From: Pantoea sp.
GTDB lineage: Bacteria; Pseudomonadota; Gammaproteobacteria; Enterobacterales; Enterobacteriaceae
Direction of reading: 5' to 3'
DNA: 32,000 bases
NCBI RefSeq assembly: GCF_032114055.1
Contig: NZ_DAMCTB010000001.1
Location: 252,294-284,293 of the forward strand
Shown: in pieces, positions 6,700-13,399 of the stretch
How the letters are laid out: every line of letters starts with the position of its first letter
Numbering within the stretch: the first letter of the stretch is position 1
Position numbers and translations under genes: made by a program
The notes under the pieces: model-generated
Seen by the model: only the letters and a program-made list of their open reading frames with translations
Told to the model about the DNA's origin: nothing
The model's database searches: none

Positions 6700-8070
6700 G
6701 TGGCAAAAACTTTTCTGCGCAGCGGTAAATTAGATGCTGTTCTGGCGCTAGGTGAAAACGGCCAGCCGGTCTACGCCTCAGCACTGCAAATTCGTGAAAC
6801 GCTGCGCCTGCGCCGTCAGAGCGCACTGGCAGATTGCCTGGCGATCCCGCAGGCCAATGAACGGGGCGACCGCCTCGACTGGTATGCCCCTTTCAGTGGC
6901 CGGGTAAAATCCTGGCTGGGCGCGAGCGATCATGAACGTCGCGCGGCCCTGCAGCAGCTCACCGCCTGCCAGCAGGATATGCAGGATCTCAGCACGCGCG
7001 CGCGCGCGGCAGAGAACCCCGCCATGCGGCTCTTTGGTGCGCTGCTGAGCAAAACCCTGCAGTTTCCCGATCAGCAATATGTCTATCTGGTGGATGGCAA
7101 ACCGGTCATCACGTTCTGGGGCTTTGTCGATGCCCAGGCGCGCAGCCGCGATGATGCGCTGGCCTGTCTGCGCGACACCCTGGAGGAGAATCTGCCGGTT
7201 GCGCTGGTTGAGCCGCTGCCCGAGCTGCCTGTCGCGCCCGTGGTCGCCGAACCCGTGCTGATGGCAGAACCGGAACCTGAAGAGGTGACTGAACCGCAGC
7301 CAGCGGTGATGGCGCCTGAACCGGTGCAGAAGACACAGGAACCGGCCCGCCGCCGCTTCCGTATCTGGTATCTGCTGCCGCCGGTGGCGATTGCGGCCGC
7401 CGTCGCAGTGGCGGTGCTGCTGCACCGTCCCGTGACCGAGACGCCGGTTGAGAGCGCGAAAGTCAGTGCAGAACCTGCGACGACGCCTGCTGCGGCTGCC
7501 CCGACACCGGCCGCTGCGCCAGCACAGGTCGCGTCGGCGCCCGCCGTTGCGCCCCCTGCCGTGATGGCCGCCGCGGAGAAACTTCCTGAGACGCTGCCGC
7601 AGAAACCGGCCAGCGTCGCAGCGCCTGAAGCCGCACCGGCCGACTCATCTGCTACCCTTGCCAGTGTGGTGACGCCTGCGGTACCGGCGCGGCCTGATGA
7701 CCTGATCGTAACGCCGGATGCGGTGCGCGATGGTCAGGTGCAGGTTATCGATGGCCGCTGGCGCGTCACCATCGACCAGATGCCGACGCCCACCGGTAAA
7801 CCGCCGGTAATGCGTTTCGAGTTCAAAAAGGGCAAAGGCAGCGTGCAGGTTGCTCAGGGCAATACCAGCTGCAAAGCGGATGTCAGCGCGGCCATGACCA
7901 GCGCCGGTAACCTGGTAATCGAGAGCCGTTATACGGCGAAGTGCCAGAATGGTTCCCGCTACCGTATGCCGCTGCTGGTCTGCCACGCGAGTATCGGTGC
8001 CGCAGTGTGTGAAGCGCAGTATGCGGAAGACCGGATCTTCCCGATGACGATTAAGCGTGAGAGTAAATAA
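6700..8070 (+). CDS. srfA: SrfA-family protein (first gene of srfABC); predicted bitopic membrane protein
   Basis: GTG start; the N-terminus MAKTFLRSGKLDAVLALGENGQPVY...LVDGKPVITFWGFV matches my recollection of Salmonella SrfA. It has a Pro/Ala/Glu-rich segment, the basic cluster ARRRFR followed by one hydrophobic helix IWYLLPPVAIAAAVAVAVLL (nt 7363-7422), a second Pro/Ala linker, and a C-terminal domain with 4 Cys. Confidence 0.8.
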   Translation: MAKTFLRSGKLDAVLALGENGQPVYASALQIRETLRLRRQSALADCLAIPQANERGDRLDWYAPFSGRVKSWLGASDHERRAALQQLTACQQDMQDLSTRARAAENPAMRLFGALLSKTLQFPDQQYVYLVDGKPVITFWGFVDAQARSRDDALACLRDTLEENLPVALVEPLPELPVAPVVAEPVLMAEPEPEEVTEPQPAVMAPEPVQKTQEPARRRFRIWYLLPPVAIAAAVAVAVLLHRPVTETPVESAKVSAEPATTPAAAAPTPAAAPAQVASAPAVAPPAVMAAAEKLPETLPQKPASVAAPEAAPADSSATLASVVTPAVPARPDDLIVTPDAVRDGQVQVIDGRWRVTIDQMPTPTGKPPVMRFEFKKGKGSVQVAQGNTSCKADVSAAMTSAGNLVIESRYTAKCQNGSRYRMPLLVCHASIGAAVCEAQYAEDRIFPMTIKRESK

Positions 8071-8072
8071 CG

Positions 8073-11036: not shown

Positions 11037-13399
11037 AAGCCCTGAAACCCCGCCAGCCGCAGACGCTGGCAAAACGCCTGAACCTGCTGCAGGATGCCCT
11101 GAATCAGAGCCTGACCTGGATTGAAGAGAGCCGTGAACAGTCGCCGCGTCTGGCGCTGGAAGCGGAAACCCTGACGCTGCAACTGCGTCAGGCGCGCGTG
11201 CAGACTCAGGCGCTGGCGCAGCAGGTGGCGCGTCCGGTGACGCTGGCGCTGTTTGGTCAGTCGCAGGCCGGAAAAGCCTGGCTGCTGAATGAGATGGTGG
11301 CTGACGCCCAGGGCCAGCTGATGACCCGCATGGGTGACAAGCTGCTGAGCTGGTTCCAGCATATCAATCCCGGCAACCTCGATTTTGCGACGGCAACCCG
11401 TTTCAGTCATCAGCGTGAGCCGCTCTCTGGCGAGTGGCCGGTTGAACTCGCGCTGCTGAGCGAGGCGGAGATTGTGCGGCTGATGGTCGCCTCTGCCGGT
11501 GAGAGCGCGCCCGACACCGCGCAGATCGACAGCGCACTGCAGCGCCTGCAGCGTCATCGCCTGGCGACGCCGCTGGCGGGTCTGGAGGGCGATGCGCTGG
11601 TCACGCTCTGGTCCTGGTGCCGTCGCCGTCCGCACTACGATGCCCGTCTCGACCGTCACTTCTGGCCGCAGGCAGTTGAATTGGCCCCCTGGCTAAGCGT
11701 GGACGATCGCGTGCAGCTCTTTTCGCTGCTGTGGCCGTCGCAACCGGCTCTTAATGAGATGCTGCGCAGCCTGCTGCATCTGCGTCATCAGTTGCGTAAC
11801 AGCAGCCGTCTGCTCGCGCCTCTCAGCCTGCTCACCGATGCGTCACTGCTACCAGCTGAACAGCTGATCGTTCCCGCCAGCGAGCAGGATCAGCAGCAAC
11901 GGGTGGAAGTCTGTCCGCTGAATGGCAACCGTATTGGCAAGGCGCAGCATGTGCCGCTGGGCTTGCTGGCCCTGCTGACGCTGGAAGTGCTGGTACCGCT
12001 CTGCTCTACACCGCGCACTGCACTCTATGACGATGCCGACATGCTGGAGCTGCCCGCGCCAGGTCAGCCCGCTGACGCGACCGTGCAGGATGACCGGCAG
12101 CGCCTGCGTCAGCAGGAGCCATTGCGGGCGCAGTTGCTGGAGCAGAAACGCGCACTGTTGCCCGGCTTCTACGCCACCCGGCAGGCGATCGATCTGCTGA
12201 TTGTCTGCACCGCCGCCAGCCATCGCCAGGATGCCAGCCTGGTGAGCGAATCGCTGCGTGAATGGCAGCGTCAGCAGCCCGCACAGGAGTCCGCCGGGAA
12301 ACCGCGCCTCATCTGGGCGATTACGCCTTTCGATGCCCGTCATCAGCAGGTGAACGTGGATGAAGCCGTGCAGCGTCAGATGGGCCAGCCCGGTCAGCAC
12401 TGGGGGTCGATGCTGGCCCTGGATCGCGCGGGCGTTGACCGTATGGCGAGCTGGTTACAGGATGAGATGCAGCCGGAGGCCCGTCGCGACATGCTGCTGG
12501 CGCAGCTGGCGCAGATTCAGCATACCGTGGTCGAGCGCCGCTTACTGCCGTGGACCGAAGCGGAAGCCACGCCGGAGCAGGCGGCCCGCAAACAGAACAT
12601 CGCTGACACGCTGCTGAAATGTTTGCAGCATCGTACCGGCCTGCACGGTGAGCTGCTGGAACGCCTGCAGCCGCCCCGCGAGGCACTGCGTCAGCTGTGG
12701 CTGAATCAGTCCGCCCTGCCTGGCAGCAAACCGGCCAGCCTGCAGGCGCCGGAGAATCAGTTCGGGATTGGCTTTGAATTTGACCTGTTCAGCGAAAGTC
12801 CGGCTGAAGCGCCGGTTCAGCCGCGTCAGAGTCTGCAGGGCGCGCAGCAGTTTCCGCGTCAGGTGATGCTGCTGTGGCTGGATCATCTGCGTCAGCTGCC
12901 GGAGAATCGCAGTCTGCTGGCATTGCTGAACGTGGATAAAGCGACGATGGAGTGGCTGGTCGAGGAGCTGATTACGGCGGGGTTCCGCACCGATATCGCG
13001 CAAAAGCTGCAGCAGGCGCTGCATGAGCCCGATACGCAGAGCGTCAGCCATGAATCCCGTGCCGACCGTCAGGTGACGCGGGCGATGACGGTGCTGGGTG
13101 ATTTCGTCGCCTGGCTCGGCTTTTTACAGCGGCCTGAAACCGAACGGCCCGCCAGCCGGGTTAACCGCGGTCAGGTGATCTTCTCACGCCCGCCCGCGCC
13201 CAGCGTCAGTTTCGGTGCCGGTCAGCGCCTCACCCGGCTTTCTGCCGCGCCGGCCAACCACACCGCCTACTATATCTATGACTGGCTGGTCGGACTGAAT
13301 CAGGTGATTATTGAAAACAACGGTTACACCGGCGGCGGCGATCTGCCGCCGTCGGCGCGTGACGCACTGATTTCCCTGCTTAAGCCGCTGCGCGCTTAA
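11033..13399 (+). CDS. srfC: SrfC-family protein; N-terminal half carries dynamin-like P-loop GTPase motifs
   Basis: 788 aa. Its start overlaps the srfB stop (ATGA at 11033-11036). P-loop GQSQAGKA (nt 11255-11278), DMLELPAPG (nt 12038-12064), strand DLLIVCTAA and AITPFD (nt 12317-12334) occur in the order and spacing of dynamin G1/G3/G4. Confidence 0.8.
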   Translation: MKALKPRQPQTLAKRLNLLQDALNQSLTWIEESREQSPRLALEAETLTLQLRQARVQTQALAQQVARPVTLALFGQSQAGKAWLLNEMVADAQGQLMTRMGDKLLSWFQHINPGNLDFATATRFSHQREPLSGEWPVELALLSEAEIVRLMVASAGESAPDTAQIDSALQRLQRHRLATPLAGLEGDALVTLWSWCRRRPHYDARLDRHFWPQAVELAPWLSVDDRVQLFSLLWPSQPALNEMLRSLLHLRHQLRNSSRLLAPLSLLTDASLLPAEQLIVPASEQDQQQRVEVCPLNGNRIGKAQHVPLGLLALLTLEVLVPLCSTPRTALYDDADMLELPAPGQPADATVQDDRQRLRQQEPLRAQLLEQKRALLPGFYATRQAIDLLIVCTAASHRQDASLVSESLREWQRQQPAQESAGKPRLIWAITPFDARHQQVNVDEAVQRQMGQPGQHWGSMLALDRAGVDRMASWLQDEMQPEARRDMLLAQLAQIQHTVVERRLLPWTEAEATPEQAARKQNIADTLLKCLQHRTGLHGELLERLQPPREALRQLWLNQSALPGSKPASLQAPENQFGIGFEFDLFSESPAEAPVQPRQSLQGAQQFPRQVMLLWLDHLRQLPENRSLLALLNVDKATMEWLVEELITAGFRTDIAQKLQQALHEPDTQSVSHESRADRQVTRAMTVLGDFVAWLGFLQRPETERPASRVNRGQVIFSRPPAPSVSFGAGQRLTRLSAAPANHTAYYIYDWLVGLNQVIIENNGYTGGGDLPPSARDALISLLKPLRA

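Follow-up and report, generated by a model that had tools for sequence, protein, structure and literature searches.

The stretch of DNA analysed here, referred to as the window, comprises 32,000 nucleotides from the chromosome of a Pantoea strain (contig NZ_DAMCTB010000001.1, positions 252,294 to 284,293) and carries a srfABC operon, three large genes on the + strand belonging to a widespread family that has long been labelled 'virulence factor' without a mechanism. The host belongs to the Pantoea agglomerans group, its SrfB being 98% identical to that of Pantoea sp. NSTU24 and 97% identical to that of P. agglomerans. The first product matched NCBIfam NF040486 (SrfA_fam; 529.7 bits against a cut-off of 150, residues 3-454), the second matched Pfam PF07520 over its full length (1343 bits, residues 1-984 on profile positions 1-991 of 992) and the third matched Pfam PF10139 (Virul_Fac; 430 bits against a cut-off of 28.1) in two stretches, the better of which placed residues 27-439 on positions 2-436 of a profile of 878 positions that was built on a longer form of SrfC. 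Because of these scores the three open reading frames (Table 1) can be regarded as real genes rather than chance reading frames.

The genes are tightly packed. The srfA stop codon (TAA, 8068-8070) is followed by CG and then by the srfB ATG at 8073, leaving a gap of 2 nt, and srfB and srfC overlap by ATGA (11033-11036); the 4-nt overlap and the A-B-C order were kept in all five of the other Enterobacterales loci compared (Yersinia, Pectobacterium, Rahnella, Brenneria and Hafnia). The gene coordinates, junctions, srfABC identity and tight coupling given in an earlier note on this DNA, which had been made from the letters, agree exactly with the sequence and the family profiles. The window locus is a chromosomal srfABC operon, orthologous to srfA, srfB and srfC of other bacteria; it is an ordinary orthologue of an operon that is already known and annotated, and NCBI already names the Pantoea proteins 'virulence factor SrfB/SrfC family'. 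The srfABC genes of Salmonella enterica (STM1593-1595) and the 'SrfABC toxin' genes of Xenorhabdus stockiae are orthologous to those of the window, with the same order, the same families and tight junctions, whereas the host is here a plant-associated Pantoea and the flanking genes differ.

Table 1. Position of the srfABC genes and of the domains, motifs and upstream block described in the text, in window coordinates.
Feature	Coordinates	Strand	Remarks
srfA upstream block, candidate promoter/operator	6605..6699	+	near-invariant ~95 bp in 15 aligned Pantoea upstream regions
srfA, bitopic inner-membrane protein	6700..8070	+	456 aa, GTG start, NF040486
SrfA cytoplasmic N-domain, aa 1-165	6700..7194	+	identity 97-99% in the P. 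agglomerans group, 82-89% across Pantoea
SrfA cytoplasmic Pro/Ala/Glu-rich linker, aa 166-218	7195..7353	+	P+A+E+V+T+S = 77%
SrfA transmembrane helix, aa 222-243	7363..7428	+	Kyte-Doolittle; RRRFR before helix
SrfA periplasmic Pro/Ala-rich linker, aa 244-335	7429..7704	+	P+A+E+V+T+S = 85%
SrfA periplasmic C-domain, aa 336-456	7705..8067	+	four Cys, TGKP motif
srfB, Hsp70-like (ASKHA) ATPase (predicted)	8073..11036	+	987 aa, PF07520, Foldseek
SrfB phosphate-1 motif D249-V-G-N-S-H-T255	8817..8837	+	seven residues invariant in 38 sequences; compare DnaK D-L-G-T-T-N-S
SrfB phosphate-2 motif D562-I-G-G-G-T-T-D569	9756..9779	+	invariant
SrfB adenosine-type motif L759-L-L-T-G-R-P-S-R-F-P-G770	10347..10382	+	compare DnaK VILVGGQTRMP
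srfC, dynamin-like protein (predicted), short form	11033..13399	+	788 aa, PF10139, AlphaFold2 and Foldseek
SrfC degenerate P-loop G75-Q-S-Q-A-G-K81-A82	11255..11278	+	G75 and K81 invariant; Ala at the Mg-binding Ser/Thr position
SrfC G3-like element E339-L-P-A-P-G344	12047..12064	+	only P341 invariant
SrfC G4-like element T431-P-F-D434	12323..12334	+	T431 and D434 invariant
SrfC hydrophobic motif F577-G-I-G-F-E-F-D-L-F586	12761..12790	+	G580, D584, L585 and F586 invariant

Predicted architecture of SrfB, SrfC and SrfA

An AlphaFold2 model of SrfB (predicted local distance difference test, pLDDT, 66.9; predicted template modelling score, pTM, 0.42) laid the protein out as an N-terminal domain of about 230 amino acids (aa), large insertions and a beta-rich C-terminal domain. 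When this model was compared with the Protein Data Bank (PDB) using Foldseek, 149 matches were obtained at E ≤ 1e-3, the best with an E-value of 3.2e-9 and a probability of 1.00, and the top 50 were without exception Hsp70 or Hsp110 proteins (e.g. BiP, DnaK, Sse1 and Ssb). Motif conservation was assessed in an alignment of 38 orthologues, in which the phosphate-1 and phosphate-2 motifs were invariant, as were L759-L-L-T-G-R-P765 and F768-P-G770 of a third element that we equated by inspection with the adenosine motif of Hsp70. The SrfB elements DVGNSHTCG, DIGGGTTD and LLLTGRPSRFPG mirror DLGTTNSCV, DLGGGTFD and ILVGGQTRMP of DnaK, respectively. The motifs were also present in a Klebsiella plasmid copy (42% identical overall), and the phosphate-2 motif was retained in a Mesorhizobium copy (31% identical) as well; judged by these motifs, SrfB is probably catalytically competent.

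Profile-to-sequence similarity between SrfB and DnaK was limited to one of the three motifs. An hhalign comparison of the SrfB profile with the nucleotide-binding domain of DnaK aligned the phosphate-2 motif only, placing SrfB residues 556-580 on DnaK 188-212 (DLGGGTFD; E 7.4e-4, probability 26%), a result that is supportive but weak when taken alone. No Pfam family besides SrfB was matched at E ≤ 0.01, so there was no Pfam HSP70 match. SrfB is also unlike Hsp70 in its length of 987 aa, in its extra N-terminal domain, insertions and beta-rich C-terminal domain, and in having neither a J-domain nor a GrpE partner among the products of the srfABC operon. On its model, SrfB is a separate ASKHA family of the Hsp70 type and not an Hsp70 proper. 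An ASKHA fold for SrfB had been proposed in the earlier note, and the 50 Hsp70/Hsp110 matches and the three invariant motifs bear it out.

The AlphaFold2 model of SrfC was better defined (pLDDT 79.8, pTM 0.76) and, like the bacterial dynamins, consisted of an alpha/beta GTPase-like domain, extending to about residue 460, followed by a C-terminal half of long helical bundles. Dynamin-family proteins made up eight of its nine top Foldseek matches in the PDB, which included BDLP (2j69, E 4.1e-4), Campylobacter DLP1/2, Drp1, IniA, mitofusin, Mgm1 and MxA; ranks 1-4 had probabilities of 0.98-1.00, although the E-values were only 4e-4 to 3.5e-2 and the TM-scores (template modelling scores) were low. 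The modelled fold is closest to those of bacterial dynamin-like proteins that bind and remodel membranes, Nostoc BDLP (2j69), Campylobacter DLP1/2 (5owv/5oxf) and Mycobacterium IniA (6j72) being its best structural matches. There was no Pfam Dynamin_N match and no sequence-level match to the dynamins in the PDB. Further bacterial dynamin-like systems are DynA of Bacillus subtilis and LeoABC of enterotoxigenic Escherichia coli, and the compact iniBAC and leoABC operons have been linked to envelope stress or to the release of vesicles. For the known bacterial dynamins no partnership has been described like that of SrfC with a predicted Hsp70-like ATPase and a predicted bitopic sensor.

An exhaustive profile search for SrfC returned 973 clusters at 50% identity (E ≤ 1e-10), which split into a long form of about 860-930 aa and a short form of about 705-830 aa, and the two differ in the state of their GTPase motifs (invariance was taken from an alignment of 39 sequences and the long-form states from 40 relatives). 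Like dynamins, long-form SrfC keeps G1 (GxxxxGKS), the conserved Thr, G3 (DxxG) and G4 (T[KMRQ]xD). Its G1 was Gx[SQ]Q[AV]GKS in 40 out of 40 sequences, as against GKA, AKA, GKN, SKA and even ENA among short forms and GQSQAGKA in the window; the element with the conserved Thr was [AS]T[GA][LVI]VTR[FL], is variable in short forms and reads ATATRF in the window; G3 was D[LFIV][LI]DFPG, reading DLLDFPG[YA]R, and the short forms, which have often lost its G, are represented in the window by ELPAPG; and G4 was [TS][KMRQI]xD (with one N), compared with mostly TPxD in short forms and TPFD in the window. The residue after the P-loop Lys was Ala in Pantoea and the Erwiniaceae, Ser in some clades and Asn, His or Gln elsewhere, and Ser in all 40 long-form sequences.

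Unlike dynamins, the window protein has GKA, ELPAPG and TPFD, and so fails the canonical G1 (GxxxxGK[ST]), G3 (DxxG) and G4 ([NT]KxD). Because the Mg-coordinating Ser/Thr is missing, window SrfC probably lacks normal Mg-dependent GTP hydrolysis; T431 and D434 are invariant and therefore some nucleotide contact may persist. Thus, of the dynamin-type assignment made in the earlier note, the fold was upheld by Foldseek and the motif set was not. The sequence FGIGFEFDLF (residues 577-586) sits in an otherwise variable loop (561-604) with a pLDDT below 50, related 'IDLF'-type motifs are visible in long-form SrfC, and its conservation makes it a candidate membrane-paddle or partner-binding peptide.

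SrfA would anchor the other two proteins. Its GTG start and N-terminus, VAKTFLRSG, were common to 13 Pantoea loci. The protein has a single strong hydrophobic helix at residues 222-243 (best 19-residue Kyte-Doolittle window 2.24, at residue 222), directly preceded by RRRFR, and this placing of positive charges on the N-terminal side indicates an N-in topology from the positive-inside pattern. All four cysteines (391, 415, 428 and 437) lie in the C-terminal domain, in line with the bitopic, N-in protein with a Cys-containing periplasmic domain pictured in the earlier note. Low-complexity Pro/Ala-rich linkers flank the helix on both sides of the membrane, and both varied among Pantoea, the cytoplasmic one in identity (26-81%) and length (47-71 aa) and the periplasmic one likewise (23-87%, 60-104 aa). 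The N-domain was the best-conserved part of SrfA in the Pantoea comparison, and the C-domain diverged faster, with 88-96% identity among close relatives and 54-58% in distant Pantoea.

A preprint of September 2026 describes the N-domain of SrfA as a kinase-like, non-catalytic fold without the kinase catalytic motifs that docks SrfB, and the C-domain as a four-Cys lipocalin/avidin-like barrel following the transmembrane (TM) helix; its AlphaFold3 model of SrfABC (interface pTM 0.66) has SrfA-N docking SrfB, and then SrfC (10.64898/2026.09.18.752743). If SrfA-N co-evolves with SrfB, which is very conserved itself, near-invariance of this domain would be expected. Neither Hsp70 nor dynamin is mentioned in that preprint, and no link of SrfB to Hsp70 or actin, or of SrfC to dynamin, was found in the literature searched, within which the structural reading of these two proteins is new; the version of it given in the earlier note appears largely right. 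A sequence scan found no hydrophobic N-terminal region in SrfB or SrfC, which are without signal peptides, as had been claimed. We favour, tentatively and with slightly less than even confidence, the reading that SrfABC is a nucleotide-driven complex anchored in the inner membrane that acts on the cell's own envelope, and is not a secreted toxin.

Long-form operons and the TagQRST-like cassette

Long-form srf operons occurred on 144 plasmid records, 114 of them from Klebsiella, and 31 of the 5,426 complete genomes of E. coli carried a srf operon. At the one E. coli locus inspected (strain ET490; L083, 1220-19740) the long form lies beside tRNA-Phe together with an integrase and IS1, and the vWA and permease proteins of its operon have the same accession numbers as those on the Klebsiella plasmids, which suggests a recent transfer between plasmid and chromosome.

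The long-form operon is made up of about 12 co-directional genes. In addition to SrfA, SrfB and the long SrfC, these encode a TagQ-like lipoprotein (NCBIfam VI_TagQ, E 5.6e-15, 55 bits against an equivalog cut-off of 300), a second lipoprotein, a paralogue of SrfA-N with a TM helix, a bitopic protein of 339 aa, a vWA protein with a signal peptide, a LolD-like ATPase and an FtsX/MacB-type permease, an FGE-domain protein with a signal peptide, and a signal-peptide protein of 167 aa to which no function is assigned. The gene directly upstream of long-form srfA (L081, 9373-10485; L083, 5605-6717) is annotated 'tellurite resistance domain protein'. It had no Pfam match, and its product, which has one TM helix at about residue 146, weakly matched the N-domain of the SrfA family (NCBIfam E 2.4e-4); it looks like the SrfA-N paralogue and its annotation may be a misnomer.

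This set of genes resembles the TagQRST-PpkA threonine-phosphorylation module of the H1 type VI secretion system (T6SS) of Pseudomonas aeruginosa, the parallels being the TagQ-like lipoprotein, the FGE protein (TagR-like), the Lol/MacB-type ATP-binding cassette (ABC) pair (TagS/T-like) and the periplasmic vWA protein. PpkA itself is built from a cytoplasmic kinase domain, a TM helix and a periplasmic domain, and the layout of SrfA, with the kinase-like cytoplasmic domain described in the preprint, a TM helix and a periplasmic domain, parallels it. The output of such a pathway would be SrfB and SrfC, rather than Fha1 and the T6SS. It is well established that TagQRST senses damage to the envelope (PMC7817224), and a srfABC neighbourhood with tagQ, ppkA and tagRST was reported from Deltaproteobacteria, mostly without a T6SS, in 2013 (PMC3608642). 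The Xenorhabdus and Haemophilus operons have likewise been reported with a cassette of Lol-like ABC, vWA and SUMF1 genes (10.64898/2026.09.18.752743), unlike the window locus, which is without it.

A different arrangement was seen on a Mesorhizobium plasmid (L082, 8944-24050). There, ahead of a distant long-form srfB/srfC pair, lie genes for a membrane-anchored trypsin-like protease and, in the place of srfA, for a bitopic Cys-rich protein of 441 aa, and behind the pair four PAN-domain proteins and a GH3 glycosidase are encoded instead of the TagQRST-like cassette.

Genomic setting and upstream region

In the window, srfABC is flanked upstream by a BenE/YdcO-type transporter gene and downstream, on the opposite strand, by genes for barstar and a barnase-type RNase; profile matches thus agree with the neighbours named in the earlier note. 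That note had also suggested that the operon is more GC-rich than its surroundings and is an accessory insertion, and neither suggestion held. The GC contents of srfA, srfB and srfC (0.640, 0.621 and 0.641) compare with 0.646 for benE, 0.657 for marR, 0.640 for the helix-turn-helix (HTH)-cupin gene and 0.620 for oqxA, only barnase (0.577) and the window mean (0.587) being lower, and a GC-based island was rejected since the high-GC stretch (3500-13500) takes in benE, marR and the HTH-cupin gene. A recent insertion was rejected by synteny: about 35 Pantoea species share the order isochorismatase-marR-HTH/cupin-benE-srfABC-barstar-barnase-oqxAB, parts of which recur in Erwinia, Mixta and Winslowiella, and srfC still has barstar/barnase behind it in most Pantoea, in Winslowiella, in several Erwinia loci and in one Mixta locus. 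Because gene order is conserved across Pantoea, srfABC is ancestral at this site.

SrfB is the best-conserved protein of the operon, with 97% identity to P. agglomerans and 65% to Yersinia; the flanking genes showed 86-97% identity to P. agglomerans, and only oqxB equalled SrfB (97%). SrfA and SrfC diverge fast relative to SrfB. An operon that is fixed and syntenic in Pantoea and has a SrfB of 97% identity therefore indicates a cell-autonomous function under strong purifying selection. SrfB was found in at least 434 species-level genomes, and the operon family extends to Mesorhizobium and Cereibacter. Beyond the Erwiniaceae, the genes on either side of srfABC change from one genus to the next and have metabolic or regulatory roles (Yersinia, Pectobacterium, Rahnella, Brenneria and Hafnia).

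These data bear on the idea that SrfABC is an anti-phage or inter-bacterial conflict system, in which the pair of NTPases and a membrane sensor would detect a breach of the envelope and trigger a protective or abortive response. The pairing of NTPases with a membrane sensor fits such a system, as do the mobility of the long form (the plasmid records and the E. coli tRNA-Phe island with its integrase), the homology of the long-form cassette to the TagQRST module that detects attack by a T6SS or type IV secretion system, the fast divergence of SrfA and SrfC relative to SrfB, and the barnase/barstar genes adjacent in the Erwiniaceae. However, in PADLOC-DB v2 neither SrfB nor SrfC had a match at E ≤ 1 and SrfA was marginal (E 0.013), a silence that is weak evidence because the database dates from 2023; phage genomes held no copy of srfABC; the locus is fixed and syntenic across the genus, unlike patchy defence islands, and no defence-island context was seen in six lineages (Pantoea and the five genera just named); and the very high conservation of SrfB is atypical of defence proteins. 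The anti-phage suggestion of the earlier note is left unsupported by these searches, and we consider a defence function distinctly unlikely.

Several features of the neighbouring genes were also recorded. The srfC stop codon (13397-13399) overlaps the stop codon of the opposite-strand barstar gene (13396-13398), so that the two convergent genes share bases; no terminator fits between them, and srfABC transcription would run antisense into barstar/barnase. The barnase-type RNase (13662-14219, - strand) is 185 aa long, with the ribonuclease domain in residues 92-184 only and an N-terminal extension of about 90 residues. The resistance-nodulation-division (RND) pair at 14774-19147 is OqxAB-like, and with an adaptor that scores 671 bits against the NCBIfam OqxA cut-off of 835 it is, by its profile score, an OqxAB-like chromosomal pump that differs from OqxAB, the resistance determinant proper; among Pantoea, conservation of the pump protein is 91-99%. 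A pertactin-type autotransporter of 1072 aa (324-3542) occupies the left end of the window. To the right of srfABC lie tus (22114-23043), the gene for the replication-terminus protein, and fumC, manA, ydgA (DUF945) and add; with tus in company with fumC, manA, ydgA and add, the window belongs to the chromosome's terminus region, and the rest of the window is chromosomal core. Terminator-like sites in the window were at chance level, and an Rfam search of the whole window returned nothing.

The near-invariant block in front of srfA is a candidate promoter/operator (Table 1); further upstream the sequence was not invariant among the 15 Pantoea regions. The block holds TTGATT-N15-TAAAAT, a 6-bp inverted repeat (AAAATC, 6633-6638, and GATTTT, 6661-6666) and two direct CG-N-CGATAA elements (6647-6654 and 6681-6688), and the srfA Shine-Dalgarno sequence AAGGG lies at 6687-6691. 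A simple sigma-70 scan upstream of srfA gave no match, and neither did the full sigma-28 consensus. The region carries GCCGATAA-like elements that resemble the sigma-28 -10 box, with a perfect GCCGATAA in four Pantoea species. One-mismatch copies of GCCGATAA numbered 42 in the window, a count to which none of 100 dinucleotide-preserving shuffles came up (expectation 23.5 +/- 4.3), and this excess may come from codon usage; being so frequent, such copies were rejected as promoter evidence.

Regulation bears on the proposal that SrfABC is a flagellar or swarming accessory, in which SrfB would act as a chaperone and the anchored complex would export or assemble a surface component (a wetting agent, lipopolysaccharide or another envelope polymer) without general membrane remodelling. 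In Salmonella the operon is under FlhDC control (class 2), and an srfC mutant, a polar srfB mutation and a deletion of the whole operon all caused poor swarming with normal swimming (PMC4219756); in Pantoea ananatis srfB is induced by EanI/R quorum sensing (PMC5867869). The perfect GCCGATAA elements could be counted with these data. Set against them, GCCGATAA is separated from the upstream TAAA by 12 nt, where sigma-28 promoters have 15 nt, the full consensus is missing and one-mismatch copies abound; no flagellar genes adjoin srfABC in Pantoea, Yersinia, Pectobacterium, Rahnella, Brenneria or Hafnia; and the long-form operons on plasmids and islands travel with an envelope-sensing cassette, not with motility genes. 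We therefore think it improbable that the operon serves motility in this specific sense.

A proposed role for SrfABC at the cell envelope

No biochemical mechanism for SrfABC was found in the literature searched, in agreement with the earlier note. The Xenorhabdus SrfA, SrfB and SrfC proteins co-immunoprecipitate and co-migrate on native polyacrylamide gel electrophoresis as a heteromeric complex (PMC6950479), which contradicts the possibility, raised in the earlier note as one that would count against its reading, that the three do not interact.

The same work underlies the view that SrfABC is a tripartite toxin, released for example in outer or outer-inner membrane vesicles and killing eukaryotic cells, with SrfA as an assembly platform. 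X. stockiae SrfABC produced in E. coli was cytotoxic to insect and mammalian cell lines and insecticidal on injection, and each Srf protein alone enters HeLa cells, the full effect needing all three (PMC6950479). Export in vesicles has been argued for by the exclusion of other routes (10.64898/2026.09.18.752743), and an M91 effector peptidase lies near one Brenneria locus and a ShlB-type transporter near one Hafnia locus. On the other hand, SrfB and SrfC lack signal peptides and SrfA has an inner-membrane anchor; the Hsp70-like and dynamin-like folds are neither of them known toxin folds; the operon is a fixed feature of plant-associated Pantoea and extends to Mesorhizobium and Cereibacter, with flanks that are mostly housekeeping genes; the cytotoxicity assays used overexpressed protein or transfection, and natural release was not shown in those publications; and the Salmonella Srf products are not translocated by a type III secretion system (T3SS) (10.64898/2026.09.18.752743). 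No secretion system adjoins srfABC in the window, although the proteins might, judged by sequence alone, still leave the cell by a T3SS or in vesicles. Taken together, we judge a toxin to be an unlikely explanation of the operon.

An envelope-directed role for the complex, by comparison, is supported both by the swarming phenotype in Salmonella and by the TagQRST-like cassette of the long-form operons. The mechanism that we envisage for the anchored, nucleotide-driven complex is as follows. SrfA would span the inner membrane, its disulfide-bonded periplasmic barrel, on a flexible Pro/Ala tether, reading a periplasmic or outer-membrane cue, and its conserved cytoplasmic N-domain would dock SrfB. 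SrfB would be the engine, an Hsp70-type ATPase with intact catalytic motifs that supplies ATP-driven work, and the dynamin-like SrfC, close to the membrane, would be the scaffold or remodelling element on which SrfB acts. The short-form SrfC of Enterobacterales would probably work without normal Mg-dependent GTP hydrolysis, that of the mobile long form being predicted to be GTPase-competent. As a result the membrane would be locally remodelled, repaired or shed as vesicles, which would be needed for instance during surface (swarming) growth. In this scheme we infer the direction of signalling, the binding and remodelling of membrane by SrfC, the action of SrfB on SrfC and the physiological trigger.

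A more specific version, possible if rather doubtful, is that SrfABC is the effector arm of a TagQRST-type pathway that senses envelope damage, and would be a hitherto unrecognised bacterial machine for membrane repair or vesiculation, the Hsp70-like ATPase remodelling the dynamin-like scaffold at a transmembrane receptor of pseudokinase type. The mobile long form, with its sensor cassette and GTPase-competent SrfC, would then be the complete system, and the chromosomal form of the Enterobacterales, including those of the window and of Salmonella, a reduced one that lost the cassette and the GTPase chemistry and was rewired to the regulation of surface motility.

A number of points tell against an envelope-directed machine of this kind. 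The SrfB model was of only moderate quality (pLDDT 67, pTM 0.42) and its TM-scores to Hsp70 were low, at 0.13-0.32. Searches of the PDB chain sequences with SrfB and SrfC, by phmmer and by profile hmmsearch, gave nothing meaningful, so the two folds were revealed by structure comparison only. Window SrfC has no canonical GTPase site, and a GTP-driven, dynamin-style mechanism cannot simply be assumed for it. The additional genes of the long-form operon, those for the TagQ-like lipoprotein, the FGE-domain protein, the Lol-type ABC pair and the vWA protein among them, were absent by tblastn from the window and from all 80 chromosomal Enterobacterales loci; for the vWA/ABC/SUMF1 cassette, the only matches near short-form operons were unrelated ABC ATPases of about 30% identity on the opposite strand. 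The sensing logic is thus extrapolated from the distant long-form relatives. Control of the Pantoea srfA promoter by FlhDC or sigma-28 was not demonstrable by the scans run, among which there was no formal search for an FlhDC box. The Xenorhabdus proteins, when expressed, were cytotoxic and insecticidal (PMC6950479). Finally, membrane remodelling by SrfC and ATPase activity of SrfB are predictions in every orthologue.

The window itself is not unusual, but the division into short and long forms and the link to TagQRST make the function of the family directly testable. Given the degenerate GTPase motifs, P-loop mutants of a Pantoea- or Salmonella-type SrfC may be uninformative, and the long/short split shows which orthologue suits GTPase work. 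Should SrfABC indeed prove to be a machine of Hsp70-like and dynamin-like proteins built on a transmembrane receptor, the annotation of thousands of genome entries would have to be revised, the few bacterial dynamin systems would be joined by one with a new combination of partners, and the TagQRST sensor of envelope damage would gain an output other than the type VI secretion system.

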